From Escherichia phage ime: a stretch of 64,000 bases of DNA. The position numbers were made by a program, and so were the translations under genes. The stretch's first letter is position 1, and every line of letters starts with the position of its first letter. Under the pieces are notes generated by a model that saw nothing but the letters and a program-made list of their open reading frames with translations, was not told where the DNA came from and made no database searches. Below are positions 2,677-50,011 of this stretch, piece after piece. The stretch lies in sequence record MN850576.1; one strand, 5' to 3'.

Positions 2677-2688
2677 ACCGCCTTCTCC

Positions 2689-3084: not shown

Positions 3085-3389
3085 CAGAAACCTCCCACTT
3101 CTTCAGCAAATGCAGCTGCTGTCGTCGCTGCATCCAGATAGGACTCTAGTTCACGGGCTGCACGTTTGTAAATTGAGTGGCGCATATCGTTTGGCAGTTG
3201 GTGGAAGTCCACCTCTTCACCGTTGTGGTAAACATGCACATCGGTGATTTGTCTAAATCCGTAACAGTCAACATCAGAATCCCGGCACTCCGGATCTGGC
3301 AACTGAACAACTGCCTGAGCTTCCACAGTAAACATATCGTCAAGTTCGAAATCGATTTCAAAAGTGTATGGTTTATAACGTTTCATCAT
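3084..3389 (-). CDS. Hypothetical protein
   Basis: 101-aa ORF, start overlaps upstream stop (ATGA); no recognised motif. Confidence 0.5.
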   Translation of the reverse strand: MMKRYKPYTFEIDFELDDMFTVEAQAVVQLPDPECRDSDVDCYGFRQITDVHVYHNGEEVDFHQLPNDMRHSIYKRAARELESYLDAATTAAAFAEEVGGF

Positions 3390-3402
3390 TTGATTGTACT
3401 CT

Positions 3403-4728: not shown

Positions 4729-4789
4729 CGTTTGGTGCTCTCCTTAGTTTTTGTGGGGAGGAGTGCCTCCCCTTTATACTCACATCTTA

Positions 4790-5131
4790 CTACTCAAGGT
4801 CTTCAGAGTCAAGCTCAAAAAGAATCAAACTGTGCATACCTGCAGAGAGATTAACACACCCTGCAACAATAAGGGTTTGATAGTAAGGTTCAGCACCCTC
4901 AATGTCTTCGTTAAAATCCACAACAAGGTAGTCACCTTTGTTAAAGGTGTATTTGTCCGATGTAAACGCAAAACCTGCCCAGTCCCCTACTGCAGGATCT
5001 TTATCAGTCACCTTTGTTAGCAGTAGATCTTTTTCACGAGATCTTTTAGTAAAATCGTGAATCACAACATCCTTCTCTTCAGGAGTCGGATTGCCACACA
5101 CGTAGTTAACGATATTTCTCCACAAACTCAT
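4790..5131 (-). CDS. Hypothetical protein
   Basis: 113-aa ORF; overlaps helicase stop by 4 nt. Confidence 0.5.
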   Translation of the reverse strand: MSLWRNIVNYVCGNPTPEEKDVVIHDFTKRSREKDLLLTKVTDKDPAVGDWAGFAFTSDKYTFNKGDYLVVDFNEDIEGAEPYYQTLIVAGCVNLSAGMHSLILFELDSEDLE

Positions 5132-30652: not shown

Positions 30653-31237
30653 TTAGAGGGTAGGTCGCTCCGGGAAGAAAATGTCAGGGGCTTTAGATGT
30701 ATCTATTTCAAGAAGTTTTACCCTGTACATTTTCAAATCTCTGATGTTACGTTTCTGGTCATCAGTAAGATCATATTCAAGGTCAATCATGTCTTGATAG
30801 GCACCAATTCTAGCAGTAGCCCAAGCAAGTTCTGTCTCTATGACACCCTCTGCCTGTTGAACAAAGAATTCATTGTCTGTGACAAATTCATCACCAACTA
30901 AACGCAAAGCGTCGTGGTGAAGCATAATGTTTTCTGGTACCTCTTCTTTTTTGGCGATAACCACACGAAGACCTGGAGCAGGCCATAAGGCATCAGGTTC
31001 TTCTGTAGATGTCTTAAGAATTCCCTTCTCGTCAACAAGTAGGAAGATACACCCTGGATTTTCTTGTCGTAATGTTCGTGACTGCACATACCAATCACCA
31101 TCATCATTACGTAAAAAATACCCAGTGTATGCGGTGTAATCCTCGACCTCTTGAGGGGTCAGCTCCTTGGTTTCCTTGTTGGAGTGGTATTCGCCAGATC
31201 CCGGTTGGTAAAGTTTAAACTCTTGAAGTATTTTCAT
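30653..31237 (-). CDS. Hypothetical protein (possible fibre assembly factor by position)
   Basis: 194-aa ORF immediately downstream of fibre paralog B. Confidence 0.45.
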   Translation of the reverse strand: MKILQEFKLYQPGSGEYHSNKETKELTPQEVEDYTAYTGYFLRNDDGDWYVQSRTLRQENPGCIFLLVDEKGILKTSTEEPDALWPAPGLRVVIAKKEEVPENIMLHHDALRLVGDEFVTDNEFFVQQAEGVIETELAWATARIGAYQDMIDLEYDLTDDQKRNIRDLKMYRVKLLEIDTSKAPDIFFPERPTL

Positions 31238-31251
31238 GCTAGTCCTCCGAT

Positions 31252-32292
31252 CTATGCATAATTAACAGTGATCCATTGACCATTTACAAGTTTTTGTAAA
31301 GGTCCTGCCCAGTAGGTTGAACCACGCATCTCTTTTTTGTCACCGAAATGCCAGCCTGTGACAACGTATCCGTTGCGGATTGGAGATTCAGAAACGCCGT
31401 CCACAAGTCTTGCACCGATTCTGATGTCTTGCACACCTGTCTGCGGGATAGTGATCGTTACATCACCGTTACCGTTAGCCGTCACTCCATTCACGGAGCG
31501 CACCACATTTCTGTTACCGACAACACAGTGCTGGCTTCTTACAACCATACTGTCACAACTTGCACCACCATTGACATATACTGACCCAGCCGTCAACTGA
31601 CTGGCCACATTACAGTTGGTGAATGTTGCTGTATTGCTGATAGTAAGGTTATTGCACCTCATGTTATCGACAACTTCAACATTGCCTACCACTTTCAACA
31701 GCGCACGATTAGCCGTGATCGCGTTAAGGTACATCAAAGTGAACTCTGGATTAATATCCGGCTGAGTTGGCTGGAATCTCCAACGAAACGCATCTACTGT
31801 AGATGTACCACCATCATCAAACGACCCGGTATTATCACTTAACCCAAAGTCGAGGGTTGTCTTATCTGGGCCAATAGTTGTCTCTATCCAAGCCTTATCT
31901 GTCTCGGCAGCTTTAAAGTTGATACGTTGCAACCCCAAGGGGCCTGTCATTGTATCACCTGTAACTTTTACATACCTGGCGTCTGCCTCTTCCTTAGTGA
32001 TAATCCCAAGGTTTCTACGGGCAACAGGAATGTTCAAAAGATCGCTCAAGTTATTATCACGTACCAGATAACGGCCTTCTTGAGCTGGGATCTGCTCGTC
32101 AGCAATGTATTTTGCCCAAGTCCCGAGCATATTGAAAATATAGTTAAGTTCTTCACATGAGGGCTTTTGACCAAGATCCCAACCTTTTCTCCACAAATCA
32201 TCAATCGGGCGTAGCCTGTTCTGTCTGTGGGTGTTAGGCAGAACCTGATCCTCCTCTGCCCAAATCTCTAATGGAAAACTAGGTTTTGACAT
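31252..32292 (-). CDS. Tail fibre protein, paralog B
   Basis: 346 aa; paralog of 29194..30240. Confidence 0.6.
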   Translation of the reverse strand: MSKPSFPLEIWAEEDQVLPNTHRQNRLRPIDDLWRKGWDLGQKPSCEELNYIFNMLGTWAKYIADEQIPAQEGRYLVRDNNLSDLLNIPVARRNLGIITKEEADARYVKVTGDTMTGPLGLQRINFKAAETDKAWIETTIGPDKTTLDFGLSDNTGSFDDGGTSTVDAFRWRFQPTQPDINPEFTLMYLNAITANRALLKVVGNVEVVDNMRCNNLTISNTATFTNCNVASQLTAGSVYVNGGASCDSMVVRSQHCVVGNRNVVRSVNGVTANGNGDVTITIPQTGVQDIRIGARLVDGVSESPIRNGYVVTGWHFGDKKEMRGSTYWAGPLQKLVNGQWITVNYA

Positions 32293-32304: not shown

Positions 32305-34377
32305 TTATGAGAAGTCTGGCGGGACAACATCTTCTACATACCCTTTCAGAGCAACCTGCCCCATATGAAGCACGGTAGAATCTCTAGCGGTAACAGTGAT
32401 GCTGTCAGACATTACTTGCGGGTATGCCCACACATACTGTTTTACCTCAGGATATCTATACTCTATAGTTGCCATGTTTCCGCAAATACATCTCCATAAA
32501 AATTCTTGGTAATTCCTGGTTGGGTCGTAACCATATACCGGAGCAAGCTCTTTACTAGGAACGAACCCTGCAAGGTATTGTATTTCAGACGGTTGCCAAC
32601 CTAACTTAACGATAGGTATGTTTACAGACTCTTTTGCCTTTTCAATACCTCCCTGCATCACCCAATCGTAGCACTCGGTGCAGAAGAAATCAAGAGCACC
32701 TGCTTCCTTTTTATATTGGTCAGCAAGGTTAAGCTTTTGCGTAAGCTCGGTTTCCATAATGGTTGGGAAAAACAGCAGAGCTGTCATCTGAGCTGATGCA
32801 GCGTGTGCCTTTATTGCCTTTGAAATAGCCGCAATACGAGCGCCAAGCTTACCACGACAAAATGCTACATACTTATCGTAAACACCGCCAGTTTTAGGAT
32901 CGTCAATAGTCCCAATATCTAATGCATACTCGCCTGTCTCATCATAAAACGCCTGTTTTGTAGGGTAATCATAAATACAAGGTCTACGAGTATCGGTATT
33001 GTACCACCACCACGGTTCACCAACCTGCATAATCACTGGCAGGTTGTTTCTCATAGCGGCTGATGCAAAATTCTTAAATACTGCAGTAAGGAAATTCATA
33101 CCCTCTTCAATGGTTGGAGACAGGAGGTAGCTACAAGGTGTATACCCTGTTTTAGCGTAGTTATCGTTCCAGTCTCTTTGGGTCCATTCCAACGGGCAGG
33201 CATCGCTGAAAAGCTCAAAACTTACAGATTGCATAACGTCGAAGTTATGTCGTTTGGCATTGTACATAAAATCATCATGCCATTTATAAGCTGCAGCGTT
33301 TAGCGCTCCTGTTCTGTTTATAGACCATTGGGTTCCTGACCATGTGTAGTCATAATAATGACTCATACCAACATAATGGTTTATGGTTCCGGTATAGCCC
33401 AGACGCTTGATATTGTTCAACACCCTTAAAGGAGACACGTTCCACATATCATCATATGCGGTGCAGATCCCAACATCGTGCTCTCTCACCTGGATATTGT
33501 TAAGTTGCATCATTTTCCAGCCTGTGTCTGGCTGAAGCAGATCTAGGCGCAACTCACACTCTACATTTTCCGTTCTCGGGTCTGTGCTATTACTTACCCA
33601 GTCTTTAGGCATAAGCGGTATTAAAATCCTTCTCACCTGCCGAGGATCAACACCCATCATGCTGTTGTTCTGGTCCATCCCGACGCAGTCCTCAAAATCA
33701 ATATGAATTTCTGCAACATTCTTATCCTCTGAGATGCTGACAGCATATTGAGCTAAAGGAACATAGATGATTGTGCCATCAACAAGGTCTACAGTCATAA
33801 TCATCTTTTCAGGAGTGGAGAAGTTGCTGGCGTTGGTTATTGACATTCTGAACCAGAGCTTGGTGTTTCTCATCTCATAATGATCATCAAACCCAATGCC
33901 GAAATGGTCATACTTGTCAACTGTTTCCCAAATGCACCCAGCCATACCTCCATATGTTCTTGACACTAAACGGTTAATACAACAGTTGTTATCTGCAACA
34001 ATACAGGTACTTTCAGTCTGCTGAGTAGTTGTAACCCAATATCTTGGGTGGAACATTCTCTCCTCAACAGTATCCCAAGATATCCTGTCGAGATTCTCAT
34101 CTGAAACTATTGTACATTTCGCCCTTTGTGTTCCAATCATTACCCCTTGGGATTTTGATGAAAACTCCATAAAGAAGCTTCTTGGTAACCTGTTGGGTAA
34201 TTTGTCAACAATTTCCACGGGGATCTCAACACTGGTTGCCCCAATTGGGATAGTTACATCGCCCTCAACATGATTATAATCTCTACCAGGAACGGCAGTA
34301 TCCTGAACTGTTCGGTAATGAAACTGTGCAGCCATTGTAGAGTAATCACGGTAAGGTTTAAAAACAGCTGTTGCCAT
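32305..34377 (-). CDS. Virion-associated protein with N-terminal Calx-beta-like motif and large C-terminal domain (possible glycanase)
   Basis: N-terminal DTAVPGRDYNHVEGDVTIPIGATSVEIPVEIVDK pattern; 690 aa. Confidence 0.45.
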   Translation of the reverse strand: MATAVFKPYRDYSTMAAQFHYRTVQDTAVPGRDYNHVEGDVTIPIGATSVEIPVEIVDKLPNRLPRSFFMEFSSKSQGVMIGTQRAKCTIVSDENLDRISWDTVEERMFHPRYWVTTTQQTESTCIVADNNCCINRLVSRTYGGMAGCIWETVDKYDHFGIGFDDHYEMRNTKLWFRMSITNASNFSTPEKMIMTVDLVDGTIIYVPLAQYAVSISEDKNVAEIHIDFEDCVGMDQNNSMMGVDPRQVRRILIPLMPKDWVSNSTDPRTENVECELRLDLLQPDTGWKMMQLNNIQVREHDVGICTAYDDMWNVSPLRVLNNIKRLGYTGTINHYVGMSHYYDYTWSGTQWSINRTGALNAAAYKWHDDFMYNAKRHNFDVMQSVSFELFSDACPLEWTQRDWNDNYAKTGYTPCSYLLSPTIEEGMNFLTAVFKNFASAAMRNNLPVIMQVGEPWWWYNTDTRRPCIYDYPTKQAFYDETGEYALDIGTIDDPKTGGVYDKYVAFCRGKLGARIAAISKAIKAHAASAQMTALLFFPTIMETELTQKLNLADQYKKEAGALDFFCTECYDWVMQGGIEKAKESVNIPIVKLGWQPSEIQYLAGFVPSKELAPVYGYDPTRNYQEFLWRCICGNMATIEYRYPEVKQYVWAYPQVMSDSITVTARDSTVLHMGQVALKGYVEDVVPPDFS

Positions 34378-36670: not shown

Positions 36671-39600
36671 TTAGTCGTGAGACTCGTTCCAAGGTCCCTG
36701 GAAGCTTGAGTTAGAACGACTAACGATCACAGTGGGACAGGAGATTGTGACACCTGTCACGCTAGACGTTGACCACGGTGTGTAAATCTCGACAATAATG
36801 TCTATAGTTTGTTCACCTAGACCAGTTATCCCTACCGCACACATGCCGTTGTTGTCGTTTCCGTACTTCTTACCTGCAAGGATTTGATGTCCGGCTATCC
36901 AAACGTTAAGCTGGGAGCCAGACAATGTCCCGTTTAGTTTAAAGAAGAATGTTACGTTCTTACCTTGTCCTGAAACGTTGTCCACATATCTCCACCTCCA
37001 ACGGCAAACCCTCTGCTGCGAGTTGTATACTGGAGGACAGTCACCGTAGGTTCTGTGTGCAACTATTGCACCTTCGAACTGGTTAGCACGGATAACAGAA
37101 GCTTCTACACGCCCACGGAAGGTACCTCCAGTTGCATCTATGGTACCCCTAAAGTTACCATTATTGGCATAAACATCTCCACGGAAGGTACCACTGGTGG
37201 CGTTAACTGCCCCTGTGAAGTTACCAGAACTGGCGTTGATGTTGCCTTTCACCCACACATCCATAAATTGGGCGTGCCCGTTCTTGTTAATGTACCAACC
37301 GTATTTATGGTACCCGTTGCCATCGTAGTTGTTTGACGAAATTTCTTGTGCGATCTTGGCAGAGGAGATCGTGCCATTCTCTATAAAAGCGTCTTTCAAG
37401 AACGCTTGGTTGTTCTTGATTGCGAAAGCAAGGGTTGCTGTTCCATTTCCAGGGTTGTATACCGCAAAATTGTTTGCACTAACCATGAAGTAGGATTGAA
37501 CTTGTCCTCCAGACCCCTCCATGCCTAGCTGGATACCTGCAACATACTTATTCCCTGCAGAGTCTACCTGAATCTTAGCTCCCCACTGAGCATTTATTTT
37601 ACCCTCAAGTGTTGTTACAGCTTTAGAGGTATTAGATACTGTAGCCCTGAGCTCATCAATATTACCCATTTCGTCAACAATTTCTTGTTTTGCAGAGGTA
37701 AGTTCTTGACGGATCGCTGTGGCTGTATTATTAACAAGATCAACTGTTGTACTATTAGTTTCTTGAATAGATGCTTGCAGATTGGCAACCTCTTTCTGCA
37801 CATCATCTTCCAGCTTGGTGATCTTCCCTGTAGCTGCCACCAGATCCTGCTTAATAGCTTCCGTTGTCTTATTTAGCAGATCTGTTGTTGCCTTGTTGGT
37901 TTCTTGAATAGAGGAGTTAAGTTTACTCTCAGTGTTCTTCAACTCTTCCCGCAGAGTACCTTGAGTTGCAGTTATTTGCTCACTCAATGCTTGAGTTTTA
38001 CGATTAACAAGATCAACGGTTGATCTATTTGTTGTCTCGATTAGTGACCCAAGCCTACCAGACTCTGCTGCAAGTTTATCGTCAAATGATTGCTGAGCTG
38101 CTACCAGCTTACTGTTAAGGGCAGAAATTTCTCCATTAACCCCTGTAAATTTTTCTGTCGTCTCTCTGACAACACCCTCTATTGTATCCCCAAGCTCTTC
38201 AAAAATGCTAGTAACACGGTCATTGACTGCACCAACATTTTTATCCATTTCCTTGACTGCATTATCAAGATTGGCGGTAAGCTCTTTATAAGTCTCTGTC
38301 TTTTTGAACTCAGCATCAATCTGTGGCATAAGATCTTCTATGGATGTGTAACAGTGGGCTGCACACTCCACAAAAGCAGATGAACCAAAAGCATTTGTTG
38401 TCCTGATATACCAGTAATAAATCTTATCGTTCTGCAGACCTTCAGATGTCCAAGTTGAACCAACACCCATACGAGTGGCTTTTGAAGTAACGGTTGCATC
38501 ACTGGTATCTGGCAATCTTGTCATCCCAGATGTCCAAAAGTCGTACTGGGTGCTTACACTAGCCAAGTCTCTGCTGTGCGGGATCAGGGTAATAGCAAAG
38601 TATCCCTGTTTAACTTCTACAGAAACCGGAGCCTCAGGTGCCTGAATGTTAAACTCACAGTATGCTTCTGGAGATACACCACCTTTATAAGATGTTGCAA
38701 CAACAGTGGCTGTGTAGGAACCTTTAGTCAGACCTTCAACACGGACAAACTGCTCAACTGTCTGCGCTGTCCAGACAATCTCTCCGTTTTTCCTGACCTG
38801 CACAATGTTTTGAGCATAAGTCCCAACGTTGTCCCAAGCCAAAACACCGTGAGTTACTTCTCCAGCTTGGAGAACGGAATATCTGAAGTTTTGCGGTTGA
38901 GCTACACCAGATGGAGATATCGGAATATCTACATCGCCAGAATCCGGAAGTTGCCCTGTGGCATCATTCCACTCTTTAGCATCTTGACGAAGTTTTACCT
39001 TGACACCCCCCTTTTTGGTAAACTCCCATTCAAGAACTCTCATTTCTTGGCCCACTATACCAATACTTGGGAGGTCCATTGTAACGTAACGACCAGGTTT
39101 AAATTTGAAACCTCGCATATTGCAGGTGACTTCAATAATCCTGCCAGCTCTGGCACGTCTTAGGAAGATTGCAGAAACACGCTGAGCTTGATAAGGACTG
39201 GTAACAAAGCGATAGTCTATATCGATTATCTTTCTTTCTCCATCCTTCTCTATCCACTCTGGGACAAACACTGATGGAAAATCTGTTTCAGAATACCCTT
39301 TGGTAGGACTGGTGAATCTGCCAGTTATTGTGTTGGATCTTTTGTCAAATGAGGCTTCCGGATAGATCTTGACCTCACCACAGACACAATCCTCACTCAG
39401 TGTCATTGTTGCCGGGCCATAGTATGCACCAACCAGCAAACCATACTTACCAGCTACATAGCTGAGATCTGCACCACAAGCTTTCAGCATTTCTGCCATA
39501 ATGCTTGCTGGGGCCTCATCCATGTCAAACTCACCGTTAATGGTGTAACGTCGCTCACTGGTTCCGTCAGCGTTTTTTACCGCCTCGTCGCATATGTTGG

Positions 39601-40270
39601 CAGCCTCCTTGAAGGACTCCCAGTTAATGGTTTCGTCAGGACATTTAAGGTACGTTCTTAAATAGTCTAGGATCACCAAGGCCGCGTTATTGGTATACAC
39701 CTCTTTACTGATACGAGGATCATAGCATTTTTTACCAACCTTGACAAGTGTAACGTTTGGCAACCCAAAAGGAAACTTGTTAGGGTCAAACCTGAAGCTG
39801 GCACGTAGCCAACTGATCCCTCTACCTATCATGTCGGGTGACCATGATGGGCAGTGTGTACCCATGAAAGGATCAGATGTTTTTCTGTCGTTATGTAGCT
39901 CCCACGATACCAGATCTCCATACGAGGAAATAGGATTACCGTCGATAAGTATATCTTCTATACCTTCCAGAGGGTGATTGGCAAGAACAATAGCACAATG
40001 GAGGGTTCTGTCGCTATCCTGCTCCAAAAACGCAAGCAATCCGGATGTGCGTGTCTTCCCATACACTACAGAGCAGGGTGCAGCAGAAGATCTGAGAAGC
40101 TTTTGTCTATCTTGCTGACTTCTGTAAGATTTGTTGCCCTCAAAAATCTTATCCAGAGTTCTGGTGGTAACAGTGTTCAGGCTGTCAGCCAGAGCTGCCT
40201 TGGATGCGTTCCAGTCATAACTTGAAGATCTTGCAGAAGCAACGATGTTATCAATCATTGCAATTGGCAT
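36671..40270 (-). CDS. Central tail fibre / host-specificity protein, lambda J-like
   Basis: 1199 aa; regions resembling my recollection of lambda J (NAALVILDYL...C...; YVAGIQLGMEGSGGQ...FMVSANNFAV), plus a coiled-coil segment. Confidence 0.6.
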   Translation of the reverse strand: MPIAMIDNIVASARSSSYDWNASKAALADSLNTVTTRTLDKIFEGNKSYRSQQDRQKLLRSSAAPCSVVYGKTRTSGLLAFLEQDSDRTLHCAIVLANHPLEGIEDILIDGNPISSYGDLVSWELHNDRKTSDPFMGTHCPSWSPDMIGRGISWLRASFRFDPNKFPFGLPNVTLVKVGKKCYDPRISKEVYTNNAALVILDYLRTYLKCPDETINWESFKEAANICDEAVKNADGTSERRYTINGEFDMDEAPASIMAEMLKACGADLSYVAGKYGLLVGAYYGPATMTLSEDCVCGEVKIYPEASFDKRSNTITGRFTSPTKGYSETDFPSVFVPEWIEKDGERKIIDIDYRFVTSPYQAQRVSAIFLRRARAGRIIEVTCNMRGFKFKPGRYVTMDLPSIGIVGQEMRVLEWEFTKKGGVKVKLRQDAKEWNDATGQLPDSGDVDIPISPSGVAQPQNFRYSVLQAGEVTHGVLAWDNVGTYAQNIVQVRKNGEIVWTAQTVEQFVRVEGLTKGSYTATVVATSYKGGVSPEAYCEFNIQAPEAPVSVEVKQGYFAITLIPHSRDLASVSTQYDFWTSGMTRLPDTSDATVTSKATRMGVGSTWTSEGLQNDKIYYWYIRTTNAFGSSAFVECAAHCYTSIEDLMPQIDAEFKKTETYKELTANLDNAVKEMDKNVGAVNDRVTSIFEELGDTIEGVVRETTEKFTGVNGEISALNSKLVAAQQSFDDKLAAESGRLGSLIETTNRSTVDLVNRKTQALSEQITATQGTLREELKNTESKLNSSIQETNKATTDLLNKTTEAIKQDLVAATGKITKLEDDVQKEVANLQASIQETNSTTVDLVNNTATAIRQELTSAKQEIVDEMGNIDELRATVSNTSKAVTTLEGKINAQWGAKIQVDSAGNKYVAGIQLGMEGSGGQVQSYFMVSANNFAVYNPGNGTATLAFAIKNNQAFLKDAFIENGTISSAKIAQEISSNNYDGNGYHKYGWYINKNGHAQFMDVWVKGNINASSGNFTGAVNATSGTFRGDVYANNGNFRGTIDATGGTFRGRVEASVIRANQFEGAIVAHRTYGDCPPVYNSQQRVCRWRWRYVDNVSGQGKNVTFFFKLNGTLSGSQLNVWIAGHQILAGKKYGNDNNGMCAVGITGLGEQTIDIIVEIYTPWSTSSVTGVTISCPTVIVSRSNSSFQGPWNESHD

Positions 40271-40707
40271 TAATACCTCCAGACATCAACAACTATAGAA
40301 TCTTTCATGTCGAACATAAAGACCCCTTTATCACCTTTCGCCCAAAGCTGGTTGTTCCAGAACACACCAGCGGTGAGCCCGTTCAGACCTTCGAAGATAA
40401 CAATATCGCCACGCTGAACCTGTTTAGGAGTATCTAGTCGAGTCATAAAGAGATCAAAAATAGTAGGCAGGTGTGTGGTTTTGAAACGGAGCATGCACCA
40501 TCTTTTGCTTTCCAACTCTGTTTTATACGTTCCTTCGAAGTTAGAAAGAAAATCTGTTCCGTATTGGGCATCAACACACTTAGCTGCAAAGGTGCAGCAA
40601 TCGTGGAATCCCCATTCAAAAGGTATGGTGGCCTCTTCGTCAAACACTTTCCACAATCTTTCTTGCCAATCCACTAAACGAGGGTGTGTGCTCATTAAAC
40701 CTCCCAA
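40270..40707 (-). CDS. Tail tip assembly protein (possible NlpC/P60-like)
   Basis: 145 aa; FHDCCTF and GDIVIF motifs; lies in the four-gene set preceding the J-like gene. Confidence 0.35.
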   Translation of the reverse strand: MGGLMSTHPRLVDWQERLWKVFDEEATIPFEWGFHDCCTFAAKCVDAQYGTDFLSNFEGTYKTELESKRWCMLRFKTTHLPTIFDLFMTRLDTPKQVQRGDIVIFEGLNGLTAGVFWNNQLWAKGDKGVFMFDMKDSIVVDVWRY

Positions 40708-41261
40708 ATGATCGGGCGGCTCGCCACCTGATCCACATATTTAAAAAATCTGTCATTATCGTTTCTTGAGCTGTGGCTTTCCTCCGTGTACCGATAAGGA
40801 AAACCTCTTAACCAACTGTTGAAGATGGAAGAAATGGATATGGACAAAGCACTATTCTCACCCGTCTGAATAGCCATATCTGTTATAAGGCCGTCAAACA
40901 AGCCATTGGTTGTAACAGGCAGACCATTCTCCATAGCGGTAATGTACAACGTGGCACGACACCCAGAATACTCCGTCTTCAGCAGATCACCCACATACTT
41001 AGGATCAAACCCGTTCAATGTCGCTACCACAGATCCGAAGTTGGTGGCATCTTTCTCAGACACAGCAGTTAATGTTGCTGATCCACCTATCCCTATAAAA
41101 TGTTGCCCCTCAATTACTACAACACCAGTGCCTGAGCACACCCTGACAGTTCCTGTGGGTAGCTCCAGCTTTGCAGCAATTAAGATCTCAACACCATCAA
41201 GCTCCAGCTTTTCAAGAAATAAATTATCTAACGGCGCTCTGATCATCTTAGAAATCCTCAA
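40695..41261 (-). CDS. Minor tail protein (tail tip complex, by position)
   Basis: 188 aa; position equivalent to lambda L/K/I genes. Confidence 0.35.
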   Translation of the reverse strand: MRISKMIRAPLDNLFLEKLELDGVEILIAAKLELPTGTVRVCSGTGVVVIEGQHFIGIGGSATLTAVSEKDATNFGSVVATLNGFDPKYVGDLLKTEYSGCRATLYITAMENGLPVTTNGLFDGLITDMAIQTGENSALSISISSIFNSWLRGFPYRYTEESHSSRNDNDRFFKYVDQVASRPIIWEV

Positions 41262-41838
41262 AGAAGTTGATAACTATATTATCACCTTTTTGCATAGCAT
41301 CGACTTTTTGCTTAATTTTATAAATATCTCTGATATGAAACCTACCCTTCGGGGATTGAGTTATTATCTTCATAGTGTCCCCTGCGGCAATAGGTTTTCT
41401 AAGTCTTGGAGATATGCCTATAACAGCAGACCCAACACCATCGCTACGCACTGGAGCTGTTACCACTTTCAATTCATCATTGACAGATATTTTATCCCCA
41501 GCTCTGGCTATGTCTCTGTTCGGCTCCCACCCAACCGTCTTCAAAAAATCGTCGTTACCAGTAGGCCCAAGGGCGATTGGCTCATTAGCTGTTACTGAGT
41601 GACCGTAAGTTTTAATGAGAAAGATGTTCCCATCTTTATACACCTGATCAACAAAGCTCTTAAGCTCTAGCAACTGTGACTCGCTGATATTGGAAACCGT
41701 CAAAGTGCCTTTCCAGTTAGGTGTGGCATAGGTTACTTTTTGCGTTTTACCTGTAAACGGACTTTTAAACGTAACAATATCTGCCAGCAGCTCCAATCTA
41801 ATATCTGGAAGGTATCTAGGCCTTTCCCATAAAAACAT
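41248..41838 (-). CDS. Minor tail protein (tail tip complex, by position)
   Basis: 196 aa; follows a terminator-promoter cassette. Confidence 0.35.
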   Translation of the reverse strand: MFLWERPRYLPDIRLELLADIVTFKSPFTGKTQKVTYATPNWKGTLTVSNISESQLLELKSFVDQVYKDGNIFLIKTYGHSVTANEPIALGPTGNDDFLKTVGWEPNRDIARAGDKISVNDELKVVTAPVRSDGVGSAVIGISPRLRKPIAAGDTMKIITQSPKGRFHIRDIYKIKQKVDAMQKGDNIVINFFEDF

Positions 41839-41900: not shown

Positions 41901-41930
41901 CAAACAAAAAGCCCCCGCCGAAGCGAGGGC
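41901..41930 (-). terminator. Rho-independent terminator
   Basis: Minus-strand GCCCUCGC-UUCG-GCGGGGGC followed by UUUUUGUUUG. Confidence 0.6.
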
Positions 41931-41936
41931 AATACT

Positions 41937-42269
41937 TTAAAGTGCTTCCAAGGTGGATACTGATGGGTCGAACATGTTCAACCTTATCGAATCTACAACT
42001 TTTCCGCTTTTAGAGATGATGTTTTCTGCATCCTCGTCCAGAGCCAGAACGTTAACATAAAACAATTCACTTTTCTCGCAAACTGGGTAGACAACCATGT
42101 TGCCAAATTCATCTTCGGCCTCATAAGTGTCTCCAGTCTCTGTGTAAATGAACCCGACAACCTCTACAAGAAGGGTGTTTTGCAACACCTCATTCTCGTA
42201 AAAGCCGATTTCGTCCATGAAACCGTTAAAATCCTCCCTGTCAGTAAATCCAAGGGTAAAAGTATTCAT
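41937..42269 (-). CDS. Minor tail protein (by position)
   Basis: 110 aa; stop/start coupled to the 1479-aa gene. Confidence 0.35.
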   Translation of the reverse strand: MNTFTLGFTDREDFNGFMDEIGFYENEVLQNTLLVEVVGFIYTETGDTYEAEDEFGNMVVYPVCEKSELFYVNVLALDEDAENIISKSGKVVDSIRLNMFDPSVSTLEAL

Positions 42270-45200
42270 TATTCAACACTCTCCATCATAAGCTGGGTGT
42301 CTGTCAGTGCAGAGTTCCAAACTCTTATGTCCTTAATATGACCAAATAAGTGTCTTTCACCTGTCGCCGTTTGACCACCAATGCGGATGAAAGCACCTCC
42401 TGCCAGGAATTCCCAAGAAGACTGCGTTTCTGAGCTCACCAGTCCGTTAGCAAAAGAGCAGGTTTTACCGTCATCTTTTATCCTGAACCCAACTTTCAAT
42501 TTACGAACTTTAGCCATCTCGTAAACACGTCTGTTTGACCCTCCAATATCACAGTATGGATAACCATCATCCGCAATATTTGTTGCAGAGCCAAATCCCA
42601 TGATAAATGCAGCACCGGATTGATGACCCTCTGTATCGATAACCCTAGGAGCTGCGTTAGGAGCTTTACCCCAACCTCTCCAGTTGGCATCCACCGTAGC
42701 AGCGATAGTGAATGGTCTAGGCGCTAAGTTATCCGTCATTGGGAATTTACAAAGATCTGCCGCCCTGGTTACAGGTGAAGATCCTGTAGGGATAAACGAG
42801 GACTCACAAGATCCTAACTCAAACTGAGGTATTGCAACGTCAACCCAATCCCCTACGGCATGTTGAGAACTCTCCGGCGGGGCAATCTGAAACTGGCACC
42901 CGATCTTTCTGTCAGAGGCCACTGCCTCAAACGTAGCAACAACCCTTGTCCAAGCAGGTCCGGCTGTTTGCCATCTCTCAGCTTTTACTTTAATTCTCCC
43001 CGCTGCACCCCCTGTTGTTTTCACTTCAAGTGTTGACAGGTTAACATAAGCATCACCTTGATATGTTGTGGTGGATCCGTCGTACATGTCGAATCTTATA
43101 CGCAGTCTCTGGTGAGCTTTACCGCCTCTTGCAATGATAGACCCAGTACAGAATTTCTCATCACCTGTTACATCGGCACCTCTGGTGGCTGGAACTACAG
43201 CCAAGTTTAACGCCGTTGTTTCTACACCGGACGTGGTGTTTACTGTAAATCTTGCACCTTTTGTGCCGTTGGTGTTTGTTACAGTGCTACCGACAGTAAT
43301 CGCCTGCTGTGCACCCCATTTACTCGGGTCTTCACTGTTAAGCATTAGGTTTGTCCTTTGCCCTTCAATAAGCAGACCATCTCTTTCAAACCGAGGCTGA
43401 TCGTTCTGAGCAGTAACCATCACACCGCGTTTAGAAAAGTATGTTGCTGTAGAAGGTCTGGAAAATACCATCTCTCCCTCACCAAGTGCAGGTTTTAAGT
43501 TGGAGGTCAAAGGTAACCAAAGATCAGGCATAACTGGGGCTGTTGTGCTTTCAGGGAAGCTTGTCCTCTTCCAAGGACTCCAAGCCATTCCACTACCAGT
43601 GTTATTATAATACCTTTCCCATGTTCCACCAAGGTACATCTTATAGATCTGAATACAGCCCGTGCCTTCGTTAGCAGAGTTTCTAAGAACAATCAGCGTA
43701 CCAGCCATCTGCTGTCCAGGCGGGTAATGTCTTTCAGCTGTAGCATTAGCATTCGCCTCTTGATGGTAGATACCTTCACGATCTGCTTTATAATCGTTAA
43801 GGTCGCTATTCCCCAGTCCTTGACCACGGTGCTGAATAACCTTGTTCCACGCTCTGTGATTTCCCTGCTCTATGGAACGAGTATACAGCTGATCTAAGCG
43901 ACCTGCTATCTGGAAAGCATAGTTCCCAGAGAATGCCACAGACAACCCGCCAACAACCATCGAACCTTCAGGTCCGTTGACGTTACCAGCCATTATTTTA
44001 GAAGGGTTGTTATTCCCGAACTGGTTGTTCCAGTCTGCACCTGTGTGGCATACAAAACCACCAGGGGCTGAGAAAGTGCCATCTTTGTTGAAGTTGTAGA
44101 ATCTGTGAGCAGAACCTACAACATCACGAACAATAACTTGACCAGCCTCTGGAGTAGATCTGAACTCTGCCTGGCCTTTGAGACCAGCACCATTACCGCA
44201 TTTAGAGGTAAACGTACCGTTAGTCAGATCCTCTGTCCCATCTGATGCACACTGGAAGCCTGCATTAGAGAATAACGCCTTTCTAGGACTGCCGTAGCAC
44301 AAATAGTCAAGACCGTCTGCCCATAACTCGACTTTTGGCATATTCATTTTGCTCATCACAGCATAGCGTTCAGCAGTACCTATATAGTGCCACTGTGTGC
44401 CGCCACCAGTGTAGAACCCTGAAGTCCCTTTGAAGTCAACAATAGGTCTGGTGTTGGTATTATTATCTCCAAGAACAGCAAGATTCAAATCTGCTGACTG
44501 GAGAGGTGCAACGAACTTAACACCGTCCTGATTGTCTGTTACAGAGCCAACCTGGTAATCTTGCTCCCTGGTAAACACCTCGACAACATTTCTACTTGCG
44601 TATATGCTGACAGGGAAAGCACGCGCCTCCGCATAGAAAGCAACATATTCTTGTTTACCCCTTGTTGGAGCAACCATCCCAAGAATTGCTTTTTCATTCT
44701 GGTAGAAATTTACTACCCCGTAGAAAGAGTCTCCTCTGTCTGTCCAACCACCAGTTCTATAGTGACACTGTAAGGTCGCACAGTTCATAGGGTCACCGCC
44801 GGATGACGATCTGGTAACTATGGTAATATCAGTGCCAGTTGCTGGAGCATAGTACGGATCTGTTCTAACGATAATTGGGTAGTATTTCCCATCTTCCATC
44901 CCTGCGGTTCTTGGCAGTGTTAAGAAGTCTTTTACACCTGCTGCTATAGGAACTTTGAACAGATTCTGAGCATCTGCTAAAGTTGTAGCCCCAGTGCCAC
45001 CTGCGGCTTGAGGTAGAGGTTCCCACTTGGCCTTCCGGTTGTTATAAACACCCCATTCCAGAGCGCCGTTACCGGATTCGTCCATCCCACCATCCCAGAT
45101 AACCATCTTGGCGGCTTTCTTGGACCCCCAGAAGCCTCTTTCTGCTCCTGAACTACGAATCCATTCTCCAAGACCCCAGTTTGTCAGCTGACCAGTAAGA

Positions 45201-46708
45201 TCCCCAACCTGCATATATTTAGGGCAGTCTAATACGCCGTCTTCGCGGAAACCTAAATATTTATGAGTTTCAGATCCTTTTGCACCTTTGTGCAGGTGGA
45301 TTGTCAGCCAAGCCTTATTGTCGTTTCTTACCTCAGAGTAGATCCTATATCCATGCTCAAGAACACCATCGGTGTTATATTTATCTCCATGGAGAATACC
45401 TGAGGCCGATTTAACATCTCCAGAGTATTGAGCTAAGTAAAGGTGCCCGAAGGCTGGCGAGTTGTTTTTACCAAGGCCAATATGAGATCTAAAGGTATCA
45501 TCGTTACGAGGTCTGACCATCGGCTGCCATGCAGTCCACTGATTTGTGTTGGCCTGATAGGTTCTCAAATACCAAACATCTACGTTAGAGAATGGATAGT
45601 ATTCCTGACGACAACCTGTACCTCCGTTAGCATTGTTCTGCCAAACAATCAAGTGACCAGCACCAGAACCTGCAGGGTAACCATTTGCCTCAGTTGCATA
45701 AGCAGTCATTGGCTGGTAGTATACACCATCCTGATTACCAGTCAAGTTATTGATATTGAAATTTGGCTCAAGGGCTGCACGTTGCTTATAGAAAGCACCG
45801 ATATTGATACGGACTCCAGCGGCATCTCTAGCCCCTGTGCCGCCTTGCTCTATAGCAAGAGGTTGCCACGAAGCTGTTTGTTGGTTCCACATACCCCAAC
45901 GGCCTGTTGCATCAAGCTGCAAGTACCCTGCCGTATTTAAATCATCTCCAGCACGGATAACTGTTCTTGTTGGGTTGTTTGCCTCTAGGCGTTTAAATTC
46001 ATCACGAAGTGCTATTCTTTTCGTTGTTGCTACACCGTTGGTTACTGCAATGGTGTACATGGCTCCGGTGGTAGCGCCACGGAAAATACCATCAACAGTT
46101 GTAGTATCACGACGAGACACCACACCGTTCAGAAATTTTTCACCAGCTGCTACAGAAGGGTAGTTGGTAGTTCTTCCCTCTTCAATAACTGCAGGGCCAA
46201 CAAAGTTATCAAGGTGAATAACATCGCCTACAGTGTGCACTGTACCAAAATCTACACGCTGTGCAAGTGCTTTGGCATCGTTAGCTGTCTGAACAGTAAC
46301 ATCCATTACATCCTGGACAGACTGCCCTTCGGCTGTCATGATCATAGATGCGCCAATGGTAGATTCCAGCTCCTCCCTTAAGGACGGGTCAGTATATACC
46401 ATCCATGCAGCGTCAGTAATCCCACCATCGGAGTACGGTGAAGACAGTGCAGGAACAGTGTGTGGAAATTCGCCTTTCCAACGCAGGTAGAGGTCTTCCT
46501 CTTCGAAGTAGGCAAAATCCATTGGGCCGTTTAACTTACCACCTTCCTTAAAGGAGATTACATGAGAAACAGTCCCATCAACATGGACAACATCGCCAAT
46601 TTTTACACGACGGGTCAGGTCTGGTTGTTGAACAACCAGGTAATCATCCTCTGTCACTGAGGTAGTGGCAGGAAGAGATTCAATTCTGACAACTTTAATA
46701 TCAGCCAT
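42269..46708 (-). CDS. Very large tail fibre / receptor-binding protein with conserved N-terminal attachment module
   Basis: 1479 aa, G/T/N/W/Y-rich; first ~100 aa are homologous to the N-terminus of 49343..50011. Confidence 0.55.
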   Translation of the reverse strand: MADIKVVRIESLPATTSVTEDDYLVVQQPDLTRRVKIGDVVHVDGTVSHVISFKEGGKLNGPMDFAYFEEEDLYLRWKGEFPHTVPALSSPYSDGGITDAAWMVYTDPSLREELESTIGASMIMTAEGQSVQDVMDVTVQTANDAKALAQRVDFGTVHTVGDVIHLDNFVGPAVIEEGRTTNYPSVAAGEKFLNGVVSRRDTTTVDGIFRGATTGAMYTIAVTNGVATTKRIALRDEFKRLEANNPTRTVIRAGDDLNTAGYLQLDATGRWGMWNQQTASWQPLAIEQGGTGARDAAGVRINIGAFYKQRAALEPNFNINNLTGNQDGVYYQPMTAYATEANGYPAGSGAGHLIVWQNNANGGTGCRQEYYPFSNVDVWYLRTYQANTNQWTAWQPMVRPRNDDTFRSHIGLGKNNSPAFGHLYLAQYSGDVKSASGILHGDKYNTDGVLEHGYRIYSEVRNDNKAWLTIHLHKGAKGSETHKYLGFREDGVLDCPKYMQVGDLTGQLTNWGLGEWIRSSGAERGFWGSKKAAKMVIWDGGMDESGNGALEWGVYNNRKAKWEPLPQAAGGTGATTLADAQNLFKVPIAAGVKDFLTLPRTAGMEDGKYYPIIVRTDPYYAPATGTDITIVTRSSSGGDPMNCATLQCHYRTGGWTDRGDSFYGVVNFYQNEKAILGMVAPTRGKQEYVAFYAEARAFPVSIYASRNVVEVFTREQDYQVGSVTDNQDGVKFVAPLQSADLNLAVLGDNNTNTRPIVDFKGTSGFYTGGGTQWHYIGTAERYAVMSKMNMPKVELWADGLDYLCYGSPRKALFSNAGFQCASDGTEDLTNGTFTSKCGNGAGLKGQAEFRSTPEAGQVIVRDVVGSAHRFYNFNKDGTFSAPGGFVCHTGADWNNQFGNNNPSKIMAGNVNGPEGSMVVGGLSVAFSGNYAFQIAGRLDQLYTRSIEQGNHRAWNKVIQHRGQGLGNSDLNDYKADREGIYHQEANANATAERHYPPGQQMAGTLIVLRNSANEGTGCIQIYKMYLGGTWERYYNNTGSGMAWSPWKRTSFPESTTAPVMPDLWLPLTSNLKPALGEGEMVFSRPSTATYFSKRGVMVTAQNDQPRFERDGLLIEGQRTNLMLNSEDPSKWGAQQAITVGSTVTNTNGTKGARFTVNTTSGVETTALNLAVVPATRGADVTGDEKFCTGSIIARGGKAHQRLRIRFDMYDGSTTTYQGDAYVNLSTLEVKTTGGAAGRIKVKAERWQTAGPAWTRVVATFEAVASDRKIGCQFQIAPPESSQHAVGDWVDVAIPQFELGSCESSFIPTGSSPVTRAADLCKFPMTDNLAPRPFTIAATVDANWRGWGKAPNAAPRVIDTEGHQSGAAFIMGFGSATNIADDGYPYCDIGGSNRRVYEMAKVRKLKVGFRIKDDGKTCSFANGLVSSETQSSWEFLAGGAFIRIGGQTATGERHLFGHIKDIRVWNSALTDTQLMMESVE

Positions 46709-46743
46709 TCTTTCTCCTGAAAGGGGGCAAACAGCCCCCTATG

Positions 46744-49341
46744 TTAAAGGTACAATCCACGGTATTGAGCATAGAGGCCCAGACCGCGAAGGATTTCGCC
46801 AGAGTGATAGCCTACCGGATCAGAAACTGCCCAGCAGCCGTTTAAAACATTATCCCCATTAATGAAGTGGTGCTTTTGCAGTAGCTTCACACAGGCCTCT
46901 ACAACAATATCTATTTGAGGTATTGTCTCTGAATACCCGCACAGACCTAGCCAGCAGCAACCTGCAAGCCATTCACCTACCACCCACATCCTGTCCCCTC
47001 TGTCTTGATAAGAATATCCCCCAGAGGTGTTAAAGTCTGTAGGCAGATTTCCTGAATGAGATGACTGGAATCTGTTGAGGAACCATGCCCATTTCTGGCA
47101 GAACAGGAACAGTCTTTCATCAACAGGTTCTTTATGTTTCTTGAGCTCATATATTGTGCGGCACGCAGCAACAAAAGATCTTGACTGGAGCTTAGAGTTA
47201 TCTACCATCTCCCACCAACCAGTCAACCCTTCATTACCTCTCTGCCATACATAACGTGAGGCAACTGGACCCTCTGTCTTAAATGTATTATTATACCAGA
47301 CTTGAGCGTCATACAGAAAGCCTATTGTATTTGACAATCTATGGCGATCTATGTTTTCTGCACCCATGCAGTAGACTGCTGGGTATTGCATGCCTGGGTA
47401 GGGCCAATTTGGCCTTTCCTCTAAGAGATAGTTTTCCTTATCTATCACCTTTCCGGCAGGGAACACACCTGGTGTGTGCCTGTATGCACCTTGCTTGTAG
47501 TTTCTAACATAGCAATCACCAACCTTAGCGGTTGATTCTGTCTTGCTTGCCATCCATACGCTAAACCAGATTAGATAAGCATCCCTATCTGCAATATAGA
47601 ATTGCGGCAGTGTGTTGACGCAATATAGATCAAACAAGCCATTACCTATCTGCCTGTCGCTTAGGGTGAAATCTACAGAGGTGAGTCCCTTAGGATTAGC
47701 AAAGAAAGGTTTAATCTCTTCTTCAGTGTGATGAGGTTGTGTCGGATCTAGTTTGAAATCTCCTAGAGTAAGAGTTTCTGTTATCCATTGTCCATTAGTG
47801 GCATATAGATCAGCATACCATAACCACCTGTCTTTGTCAAGAAATTTGACCCTTACCATCTCATCATCTGATCGATAAGTTACTGAGTTTAAAGAAATCT
47901 CTCTTCCAAAATTGAAAGTTACTTTGCCTCTTGCTATATTACAACGGGTGAAGTTGTCAGAGTGGTTGTAAATGTCAGTAGCGTACTGCATACTAACACT
48001 GGCACCACCGCTCACGGCAATATTTTCCTCTTTAGGTAAAAGGTACGGATTACCGTCTTTACCAACTACCTCTACGAAATCAGTAACCTTGGCAACTATT
48101 TCTGTTACCTCTGCCCCTCCAAAAGGAACCCCTATCCTGTACTGTTTTTTGTTATTGTTGCCATCATTAAGGATGAAATGTGGCTGGAACAGAACCCCTT
48201 CTCCTCCGAAATTCATAACAATTTCAGCATCTCTGCCTATTTTGTATGTAGTCCCTTTTTGAATTATTTCGCAAGGCTGGCGTGCGTTCATTCTAAAGTT
48301 GATATACCCGTCACTGTCTCTGCTCATGACAGGAACTGTTCCTGCAACAAGACAAGTACCGTCTGTAAACGGTGCCTTAATCAACGTGGTCTTTCTAAAC
48401 AGCTTGTCGTAGGCGTTTATATCACTGAAATTAAGCAACTTGTTGTAAGACTGTTTAAATGCGGTGTAATACTTTTCCTCACCTGTCAAGGTGTAGAGTT
48501 GATAACAAGCGTCACACCACATTTCTTCCCCGTCCAACTCTGGGGCCTGATTATCTGCAACCACGTTTATAGGATTTACAATTACAGGGGATCCAGCAGG
48601 TATCACCGATCCGCCCTGCTCTTGAGGTAATCTTACACAATAGGTCACCTTGTGGCTGCCTGTAACACCCTTATCTTGTAATTGGATTGTGCCGAACTCT
48701 ACAGACGTATGACCACTGTCGGCTATGCTACCGTTAGCCCAATAGCGGTTACCATCCCATGCTATGTACCACTCAACCCACCAACTTAATCCGGATGTTG
48801 TCCAATCTGGGTTAGCATCTGTGCCACCGTAAACATCAGAGTCTACAGTGTTTCTTCCTAACACACCGTTATACGCTTGGAATGCCTTGTCCAGGTATTC
48901 CCCCCATGTCGGAGATCCAGCTGGGATTTTTCCTCTACCGTTGGTAAAAGACACCACCACATCTTTAAACCCACCGTGTGATGGAACCCCATCTGTGGAT
49001 AGAGGGTAGTGGGACAATCTTTGCATTTTACTTTCTACGGCATATGCACCCAGAAGATGACTATTGTAAGCTTCCCAAGCATCTTTTGCCCTATCCAGAT
49101 AGAAATCGCTTTTCGATGCCCTATATGCTTCAATGTATCCCAGAATCAACACAGCTTGGGACTCATGCATTGCCCAATCATTATTTATCTTATTACCTGC
49201 CCACCCTGCAGCTATAAGACCATCAGGGTTTACTAGCTTATTTTGTGTAGGGGTGTTGGTAATACCTGTGTTGTTATCGAGGCACTTCCTGTGCCCCTCA
49301 ATCATCTGAAATACGTTATCAATGTTGTGTTGAATACGCAT
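46744..49341 (-). CDS. Tail-associated protein, possible glycosidase/depolymerase
   Basis: 865 aa, W/Y-rich; sits between two fibre genes that share an N-terminal module. Enzymatic call is weak. Confidence 0.35.
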   Translation of the reverse strand: MRIQHNIDNVFQMIEGHRKCLDNNTGITNTPTQNKLVNPDGLIAAGWAGNKINNDWAMHESQAVLILGYIEAYRASKSDFYLDRAKDAWEAYNSHLLGAYAVESKMQRLSHYPLSTDGVPSHGGFKDVVVSFTNGRGKIPAGSPTWGEYLDKAFQAYNGVLGRNTVDSDVYGGTDANPDWTTSGLSWWVEWYIAWDGNRYWANGSIADSGHTSVEFGTIQLQDKGVTGSHKVTYCVRLPQEQGGSVIPAGSPVIVNPINVVADNQAPELDGEEMWCDACYQLYTLTGEEKYYTAFKQSYNKLLNFSDINAYDKLFRKTTLIKAPFTDGTCLVAGTVPVMSRDSDGYINFRMNARQPCEIIQKGTTYKIGRDAEIVMNFGGEGVLFQPHFILNDGNNNKKQYRIGVPFGGAEVTEIVAKVTDFVEVVGKDGNPYLLPKEENIAVSGGASVSMQYATDIYNHSDNFTRCNIARGKVTFNFGREISLNSVTYRSDDEMVRVKFLDKDRWLWYADLYATNGQWITETLTLGDFKLDPTQPHHTEEEIKPFFANPKGLTSVDFTLSDRQIGNGLFDLYCVNTLPQFYIADRDAYLIWFSVWMASKTESTAKVGDCYVRNYKQGAYRHTPGVFPAGKVIDKENYLLEERPNWPYPGMQYPAVYCMGAENIDRHRLSNTIGFLYDAQVWYNNTFKTEGPVASRYVWQRGNEGLTGWWEMVDNSKLQSRSFVAACRTIYELKKHKEPVDERLFLFCQKWAWFLNRFQSSHSGNLPTDFNTSGGYSYQDRGDRMWVVGEWLAGCCWLGLCGYSETIPQIDIVVEACVKLLQKHHFINGDNVLNGCWAVSDPVGYHSGEILRGLGLYAQYRGLYL

Positions 49342-49342
49342 C

Positions 49343-50011
49343 TTAGATAGCTCCTGCGATAATCAGTGCCCCGTACCAAGTTAACCCGTTGTCGTAGGTT
49401 TCCAACTTGAAAATGTCTGTTGCACCAGCTGTAAATGTTAGGATAGGATCTCTTCCGTAGGACCATTTAACATTACCAGGCCAATAGACTTTGTTGCCGC
49501 CAGAGGTCTGAGTAATGCATACGGTTATAGTTCTCGCCACCCCTTCAAGACCTTCTGTTTGATTTTCAAAAGAGATTGTGGTATTTGAAGTTAGTCGAAC
49601 CTTAAAGGTATCCGCAACTTCAAGATCCATATCAAGCTGACCACCGATAGATCCGTAATCAACTATTCTGCCAGAAGAAGTTGCAGCAAGCTCACCAAAA
49701 ACAGACCAGGCATTTGCAGACACACCCCCAGCACCCTCTACAGTGGAGTCTGGGAGGATTATTTTAGGATAATCCCCGTTCCACGTGTAGTAGCGCTTAG
49801 TTTCTGGATCATAAGCAAAGTCCTTCTTGCTCTTAAGATAACCACCCTCTGTGAAATAGACTATTTTAGTAATGCTGAGATCGTTGACAACATCATCAAT
49901 CTTAGCCTTTCTTGTCCCATCAGTCTGGTTGACAACCAAGAAGTCATCACTCAGGACTGTTTCTGCATCTTCAAGATCTGGAATTGGTATTGTAGGATAA
50001 GCTACAGCCAT
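49343..50011 (-). CDS. Short fibre/adaptor protein with the same N-terminal attachment module
   Basis: 222 aa; LSDDFLVVNQTDGTRKAKIDDVV...FTEGG...DFAY aligns with the 1479-aa protein N-terminus. Confidence 0.5.
   Translation of the reverse strand: MAVAYPTIPIPDLEDAETVLSDDFLVVNQTDGTRKAKIDDVVNDLSITKIVYFTEGGYLKSKKDFAYDPETKRYYTWNGDYPKIILPDSTVEGAGGVSANAWSVFGELAATSSGRIVDYGSIGGQLDMDLEVADTFKVRLTSNTTISFENQTEGLEGVARTITVCITQTSGGNKVYWPGNVKWSYGRDPILTFTAGATDIFKLETYDNGLTWYGALIIAGAI

Follow-up and report, generated by a model that had tools for sequence, protein, structure and literature searches.

A proposed adaptor–cargo gene pair in the receptor-binding cluster of Escherichia phage ime

A small protein with a fibre-type N-terminus

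The DNA considered here is a 64,000-nucleotide stretch of Escherichia phage ime (record MN850576.1), called the window below. Its minus strand carries three adjacent genes at 42269–50011, coding for a 222-residue protein (49343..50011), an 865-residue protein (46744..49341) and a 1479-residue long tail fibre (42269..46708; phrog_6578, tail fibre). The original prediction, made from the letters alone, regarded the first and the last as two fibre proteins sharing an N-terminal module and flanking a possible depolymerase, and the three open reading frames (ORFs) are indeed present on the minus strand at exactly the positions it gave. The locus thereby raises the question of whether the 222-residue protein is a second fibre, or serves its 865-residue neighbour. 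On balance, the most credible account is that the two form a cassette of adaptor and cargo, in which the N-terminal anchor of the 222-residue protein would hold to the virion, its C-terminal domain would dock the 865-residue protein, a cargo with a glycosidase-type fold, and the same cassette would be mounted on different tails by exchange of the adaptor N-terminus.

The cluster itself is the known rV5-like receptor-binding cluster. Megablast of 42269–50011 against phage genomes matched 122 records, 120 of them at 90–99.8% identity. Nearly all are rV5-like phages of Escherichia (genus Vequintavirus), and the identity to rV5-like phages is 95–99.8% at the nucleotide level; the closest, vB_Eco_Alma, is 99.8% identical over the full length, and at least 80% of the 7.7-kb block is covered in 72 records, placing it in the collinear gp41–gp43 block of rV5. 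Judged by sequence, the genes for the 1479-, 865- and 222-residue proteins are orthologues of rV5 gp41, gp42 and gp43, respectively: gp43 has the same size as the 222-residue protein (phrog_7760 over its full length, E=8e-120), the block directly follows the sheath-initiator gene in both phages, and mass spectrometry of rV5 virions found gp41, gp42 and the 222-residue gp43 among their proteins (PMC3606486). The gene order is also the same in the BASEL phage CarlMeissner, in which the block comes after the genes for tape measure, tube initiator, hub, spike and a “baseplate protein”, and in which the three products are labelled “sialidase domain protein” (222 residues), “lateral tail fiber protein with glycosidase domains” (865 residues) and “lateral tail fiber protein” (1479 residues). 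The first of these labels could not be upheld, as no sialidase or endosialidase catalytic domain was recognised in the 222-residue protein. The gp140/gp141/gp143 loci of phi92, the “nanosized Swiss army knife” of the Vequintavirinae/Stephanstirmvirinae literature, are direct orthologues as well. The multivalent adsorption apparatus that had been deduced from the window is therefore correct, but it is not a new inference, having already been published for rV5/phi92-type phages (PMC8594841, PMC13450770). As first stated the finding was ordinary, since phage and Pfam domain were known and the glycosidase had been predicted before.

The shared anchor module

The N-terminal similarity of the two putative fibre proteins survives a proper pairwise alignment. 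BLASTP aligned residues 7–105 of the 1479-residue protein with residues 8–105 of the 222-residue protein at 38/99 identities (38%) with one gap (E=2e-18), and all remaining segments had E>2, so that the homology ends near residue 105. When either N-terminus was compared by phmmer with all six-frame ORFs of the window, only the other protein was retrieved (E about 1e-18), and no third carrier of the module was found. Both N-termini belong to Pfam family PF18668 (Tail_spike_N), with 40.4 bits (E=3.1e-10) at residues 46–103 of the fibre and 41 bits (E=2.1e-10) at residues 51–105 of the 222-residue protein, against a gathering score of 25 bits. The family was defined on CBA120 TSP1 and G7C gp66 (TSP1/Gp66 N-terminal domain), and PDB sequence matches of the 222-residue N-terminus, which was modelled poorly in structure prediction, are to tail spikes, among them CBA120 TSP1/3/4 and G7C gp63.1, within their N-terminal parts; the fibre N-terminus also matches N-terminal regions of solved tail spikes. 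In the rV5 paper, HHpred had already related the N-terminus of gp43 to that of a tailspike (PMC3606486). Since this recognised tail-spike/tail-fibre module is joined in the two proteins to unrelated downstream parts, a common attachment function fits, as had been proposed.

The shared region consists of two parts: an anchor peptide of about 45 residues, with the motif LP..T.V...D[YF]hhV.Q....T[RK]K, and the PF18668 domain, at residues about 46–105. In the 222-residue protein the peptide (residues 1–45) is encoded at 49877..50011 and the domain at 49697..49876, and in the fibre the two together (residues 1–105) occupy 46394..46708, all on the minus strand. The peptide aligns with residues 1–45 of the fibre, and was also found without PF18668 in the gp140 homologue of the phi92-like phage alia and in the small protein of the Kolesnikvirus Roscha1; phi92 gp140 likewise differs from the 222-residue protein in being without the PF18668 domain. 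A hidden Markov model (HMM) built on these four peptides matched the alia protein at the position of phi92 gp143 (E=1.7e-4). In alia, then, the same N-terminal peptide is present in the gp140 homologue and in the protein at the gp143 position.

A conserved domain directly upstream of the 865-residue family

What follows the anchor in the 222-residue protein is a conserved C-terminal domain (residues ~112–222, 49346..49678 on the minus strand), which we propose to be the docking domain for the 865-residue protein. Word-index homology searches yielded only 6 and 4 relatives, and an exhaustive HMM search and tblastn against phages were used instead. The 222- and 865-residue proteins matched 535 and 524 phage records, respectively, by tblastn, and these are nearly the same set with the same genus profile. 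Within Vequintavirus both proteins are at least 95% identical (the 222-residue protein 98–100% in more than 100 records), while the fibre tip is variable. In distant phages, only residues ~110–222 of the small protein match, right beside a homologue of the large one.

Such a small gene directly precedes the large one in nine unrelated lineages, namely Vequintavirus (rV5-like), Justusliebigvirus (phi92-like alia), Asteriusvirus (jumbo phage phAPEC6), Rosemountvirus (SE13), Melnykvirinae (T7-like Atoyac15), Kolesnikvirus (Roscha1), Schitoviridae (Philippe), Grimontviridae (PKM.Hi.22.6) and a Vibrio phage (D528). In these loci it encodes 157–283 residues and its end overlaps the start of the large gene or lies within a few bases of it; the nine products are conserved only over their last ~100 residues, with eleven invariant positions. 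The same arrangement was found outside the set from which the profile was built. Yersinia phage ISAO8 and Salmonella phage SeKF_13 have the pair, a Burkholderia prophage has the C-terminal domain in the gene directly upstream of the large-family gene (E=3e-19), and in viral contigs of IMG/VR the domain ends the gene directly upstream in 66/67 testable loci, as it does in 12/12 loci from elsewhere. Throughout, stop and start codons of the partners usually overlap. Because the conserved domain directly precedes a homologue of the 865-residue protein in nearly every locus that has one, the 222-residue protein reads better as the docking adaptor in a cassette of two genes.

The N-terminal parts of the putative adaptors, on the other hand, vary from lineage to lineage: PF18668, the T7 tail-fibre N domain (PF03906, the adaptor N-terminus in Atoyac15), the tail-collar fibre N domain (PF12571), SPRY, or none recognisable. 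In the T7-like phages Atoyac15 and ISAO8 a tail-binding domain is present only in the small protein, and the large one comes next, in the gp17 slot. The large family has no recognisable anchor domain in adaptor-containing loci. In adaptor-less cases it is fused to a lambda gpM/Dit-like domain (PF05939, in 8/47 members) or to J-like Phage-tail_3. Among 154 proteins scanned there was no fusion of the adaptor C-terminal domain with the large family, the lone match, P0068, being a 293-residue fragment. In fold, the C-terminal domain weakly resembles T4-type gp9 and the N-terminal region of TSP4, and a T4 gp10-like docking domain could not be confidently demonstrated in the comparison with CBA120/G7C-type proteins.

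In the literature searched we found no paper on an adaptor–cargo cassette of this kind, nor one on six-hairpin proteins with phage tails; the Alteromonas “chaperone cap” paper describes a different module. The proposed cassette and its distribution across phage families thus appear to go beyond that literature. The adaptor can also be overlooked in annotation. In phAPEC6 (MK817115), an unannotated 178-residue ORF at 5460–5996 of the locus corresponds to the adaptor C-terminal domain and lies directly upstream of the gene for a 929-residue homologue (gp314c), and the deposited annotation shows only a 42-residue ORF in its place. Two loci have the domain without the six-hairpin family. In Microcystis phage Mel-JY34 (locus 4027–4830) a protein ending in the adaptor C-terminal domain (E=8e-23) is followed by a 288-residue protein, and in Pseudomonas phage DT01 (locus 4195–4782) one with the same ending (E=1e-12) is followed by a 396-residue protein and then by ConA-like lectin proteins. 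The adaptor domain may dock other cargos too.

A predicted glycosidase-type fold without a family

The 865-residue protein has no Pfam match and no PDB sequence match, and its family comprises 367 clusters at 50% identity in the exhaustive profile search. It is predicted to fold as a six-hairpin (alpha/alpha)6 glycosidase-type barrel, rather than as a purely structural fibre protein. In the AF2 model (predicted local distance difference test score, pLDDT, 65; shallow alignment), helical hairpins occupy residues 59–97, 269–306 and 663–861, and are broken up by beta-rich inserts at 108–247 and 330–617. A trimeric beta-helix tailspike depolymerase was considered and rejected, as no parallel beta-helix catalytic domain was found. 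Across 124 full-length relatives (clustered at 50%), E60 (91%), D270 (94%) and Q680 (98%) are conserved, as are Q62, Q652, R721 and E849; the candidate catalytic residues are E60 and D270, both of which the model places where barrel helices begin.

At the level of families the evidence is different. A 47-sequence family profile matches GH76 (E=1e-5; GH, glycoside hydrolase) and cellobiose 2-epimerases (E about 3e-4), with both matches confined to the repeated hairpin motif, and Pfam scans of the 47 members, even at E<=10, yielded only scattered weak matches to GH76, GH47 and GH127. By eye, the motifs TTEGQ, A-x-D-A-E-x-W and YDAQ resemble TSEGQ, ASDGDVW and YDAIR of BcsZ. Membership in GH8 was nevertheless rejected after comparison with E. 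coli BcsZ and six plasmid-borne GH8 genes: hhalign gave E=0.17 for the family profile against BcsZ and E=0.4 against the 7-sequence GH8 profile, with inconsistent registers, and no member of the family matches Pfam GH8 or GH48. The earlier proposal of a glycan-degrading enzyme thus holds at the level of the (alpha/alpha)6 fold and of conserved acidic residues, but no GH family can be assigned at significance. Published labels are in the same vein, with phi92 gp141 listed as “glycosidase” in a review table (PMC5380687) and ORF17 of S144 noted as hydrolase-like (PMC7432712). That the protein is an enzyme is plausible from the model, and if activity were confirmed, the family, which has no Pfam model and no solved structure, would be a new virion-associated carbohydrate-active family.

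Alternatively, the 865-residue protein could be a non-catalytic structural or lectin-like part, such as the arm of an L-shaped lateral fibre, with the six-hairpin fold serving as a scaffold or glycan-binding module. The failure to assign a GH family would be expected in that case, a six-hairpin domain is present in the tail protein VP4 of SSV19, and relatives carry or are fused to other receptor-binding domains (N4 gp65-like, Ig-like, glycine-rich) in a scaffold-like manner; moreover, the arm of phi92 fibre I has no assigned protein. We nevertheless consider this alternative doubtful, since the placement of E60 and D270 at barrel-helix N-termini, and their retention together with Q62, Q680 and R721, look more like an active site, and since the family is repeatedly joined to carbohydrate deacetylase or esterase domains. 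Two independent relatives, P0039 and P0021, are fused to NCTSP_N and the triosephosphate isomerase (TIM) barrel of an N4 gp65-like deacetylase, and a third, P0058, carries a GDSL/SGNH esterase. These fusions suggest that the barrel protein and the deacetylase may share a glycan target.

The same deacetylase-type architecture occurs as a separate gene in the window. At 32305–34377 on the minus strand, a 690-residue protein combines Calx-beta, NCTSP_N and the TIM barrel of the N4 gp65 non-contractile sheath/deacetylase, which is the architecture found at the C-terminus of the 865-residue family in P0039 and P0021. In phi92-like phages a deacetylase-type gene adjoins the gene of the large family, and phi92 gp142, with the architecture of the 690-residue protein, was proposed as an N4 glycan receptor (NGR)-binding protein (bioRxiv 10.64898/2026.04.02.716166). 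In Roscha1 (4978–6483) and SeKF_13 (2491–3996) a 502-residue “proximal tail fibre subunit/tail protein”, encoded just upstream of the adaptor, has one beta-sandwich domain in common with the family (profile positions 470–621, E about 1e-38), which implies that the insert domain, too, is mobile. In the 865-residue protein of the window, this stretch (residues 482–580) is matched by phrog_23426.

Is the 222-residue protein a fibre of its own?

If the 222-residue protein were a short independent fibre with the C-terminal domain as its receptor-binding tip, the 865-residue protein would attach on its own, and their adjacency would reflect no more than a common morphogenetic operon. We regard this as unlikely. 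A receptor-binding tip should vary with the host, yet the domain is near-invariant within Vequintavirus, and its invariant residues are the same in phages of E. coli, Vibrio, Aeromonas, Stenotrophomonas, Erwinia and Burkholderia. The position of the partner directly upstream in nearly all loci, counted above, also speaks against it, and the large protein, being without a recognisable anchor in adaptor loci, would have no other route to the tail in T7-like phages. The original prediction was thus right about the shared anchor and plausible about the enzyme, and was probably wrong in taking the 222-residue protein for a separate fibre with a distal receptor module of its own. A role as an assembly chaperone of the 865-residue protein, not present in the virion, would account for the tight translational coupling and strict co-occurrence, but is highly improbable, given the mass-spectrometric detection of rV5 gp43 in purified virions (PMC3606486) and the presence of attachment domains (PF18668 here, the T7 tail-fibre N domain elsewhere) that would be superfluous in a chaperone.

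Comparison with known appendages

The proposed adaptor–cargo pair has parallels in several known arrangements. The branched tailspikes of CBA120 (TSP1–4) and G7C (gp63.1/gp66) have the PF18668 module in common with the proteins described here, and there too several receptor-binding proteins with shared N-terminal modules are attached to each other or to the baseplate; their cargo, however, is a trimeric beta-helix spike, while here it is probably a monomeric alpha/alpha barrel. In the K1E/K1-5/SP6 adaptors with endosialidase or lyase spikes, and in the anchor-branch systems of the Klebsiella KP32 type (PMC6872550), a small T7-type tail-binding protein carries a separate enzyme, as it would in Atoyac15 and ISAO8. 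These podovirus systems differ in docking domain and cargo fold, and the cassette described here appears to be reused on myovirus, podovirus and prophage tails by a swap of the N-terminus. Known six-hairpin GHs (clan GH-M with GH8/GH48; GH76, GH88/GH105, GH9) are only 9–13% identical to the 865-residue protein and differ from it in that its barrel is interrupted by ~450 residues of beta-rich insertions; there is no significant family-level match by HMM or profile.

The closest comparison is with rV5 and phi92 themselves. In alia, the gp141 position is taken by a protein with 35% identity to the 865-residue one, and the gp140 homologue shares the anchor peptide and the C-terminal domain. Published work on rV5 and phi92 has neither placed gp140/gp141 in a fibre nor called them an adaptor–cargo pair. 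The assignment of genes to lateral fibres in phages of this type is still unclear (PMC8594841), and in a 2026 cryo-electron microscopy study of phi92, fibre II and the arm of fibre I were left unassigned, only distal fibre I was inferred and gp141 went unmentioned (PMC13450770). Phages of the rV5-like and phi92-like kinds rank with the coliphages most often isolated, and their broad host recognition makes them candidates for therapy. If the adaptor–cargo reading is true, it names a testable candidate for the unassigned phi92 density, accounts for the invariance, across hosts, of two conserved “fibre” genes, and offers a portable two-gene module that could be moved between phage chassis by exchange of the adaptor N-terminus.

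A more far-reaching combination may also be considered, although we find it rather unlikely that all of its parts hold at once. The pair would be an instance of a widespread, undescribed “plug-in” appendage, composed of a ~100-residue docking domain and a six-hairpin glycosidase, that myoviruses, podoviruses, siphovirus-like prophages and jumbo phages mount by changing only the adaptor N-terminus; in rV5/phi92-type phages it would be the lateral structure still unassigned (phi92 fibre II or the fibre I arm), and, as a hydrolase, it would work alongside the N4 gp65-like deacetylase fibre on a conserved exopolysaccharide, for instance the N4 glycan receptor. The pairing of hydrolase and deacetylase is suggested by their fusion in some phages and their adjacency in phi92.

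The exchangeable tip of the long fibre

The 1479-residue fibre has a conserved body and an exchangeable distal module. Residues 1–1048 are 87–97% identical across Vequintavirus, other members of the genus diverge after residue 1048, and the whole allele is found in only 34 records. Residues 1047–1479 (42272..43570, minus strand) are instead 28–46% identical to the C-termini of side or lateral fibres of T1-like, T5-like, JenP1-type, Dhillonvirus and lambda-variant phages. This tip may be lectin-like: residues 1080–1322 match the RcGTA head spike fibre Rcc01080 in the PDB (E=1.9e-7), and there is a sub-threshold Pfam match to the ConA-like Laminin_G_3. The shaft contains two knob-like repeats, at residues ~324–408 (45485..45739, minus strand; phrog_5481 at 257–399) and ~969–1050 (43559..43804, minus strand; phrog_6614 at 963–1048), which are 39% identical (E=5e-13) when the segments are compared directly; self-BLAST of the whole protein detected no internal repeats at E<1e-3.

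The tip travels together with a gene for a 110-residue protein (41937..42269, minus strand; phrog_1361, unknown function), the start of which overlaps the fibre stop codon (TAATG). This protein has no Pfam match. In tunus, VSe12, Lambda_4B5, PeterMerian and others, a fibre gene with the same tip is immediately followed by the gene of a homologue, and no such gene is present in the alternative Vequintavirus allele in HeinrichReichert. The 110-residue protein is likely a tip-specific assembly factor or accessory protein; a chaperone role would follow only from its position and its co-transfer with the tip. Cassettes of the lambda Stf/Tfa type, and those of T5/T1-like lateral fibres, offer a parallel, as T1-like, T5-like, lambda-like and Dhillonvirus genomes have residues 1047–1479 and the 110-residue gene together and in an unchanged order; the 110-residue protein differs, however, in being phrog_1361 and in matching no Pfam family. 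The rV5 allele is different: its gp41 has 1272 residues and an endosialidase-type chaperone domain, in place of the lectin-like tip and the 110-residue gene.

The 110-residue gene is followed, at 41911..41930 on the minus strand, by an intrinsic terminator-like hairpin (8-pair stem with 7 GC, then TTTTTG), which probably ends the transcription unit. On account of this gene and its hairpin, the functional unit reaches ~360 bp beyond the left boundary originally drawn at 42269. A second GC-rich hairpin (GGGGGC-TGTTT-GCCCCC, then TTT) lies at 46723..46739, minus strand, in the 35-nucleotide spacer between the 865- and 1479-residue genes; the terminator scan, with its demand for 5 T residues, did not report it, and it is possibly a partial terminator or an RNA-stability element.

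Neighbouring genes and record labels

A lambda-like tail-tip gene set is located inside the myovirus baseplate cluster, at 36671–41838 of the window on the minus strand. It codes for a 196-residue “distal tail protein” (phrog_1302), a 188-residue tail protein (phrog_2048), a 145-residue protein annotated as a cell wall hydrolase, and a 1199-residue J-like protein with PF09327 (Phage_Tail_Tip) and Ig_J domains. No such set is present at the same position in the phi92-like alia. Further along the minus strand are two paralogous short tail fibre genes (29194–30240 and 31252–32292), each encoding about 347 residues of phrog_4465 and separated by a tail-fibre assembly protein gene (30653–31237; phrog_136). 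The pair matches rV5 gp30 and gp33, which have been described as T4 gp12-like (PMC3606486).

Finally, about 18–25 GenBank entries (MG0656xx) bear the name “Campylobacter phage”, yet over this block their identity to rV5-like phages of E. coli reaches 97%; their host label looks doubtful.

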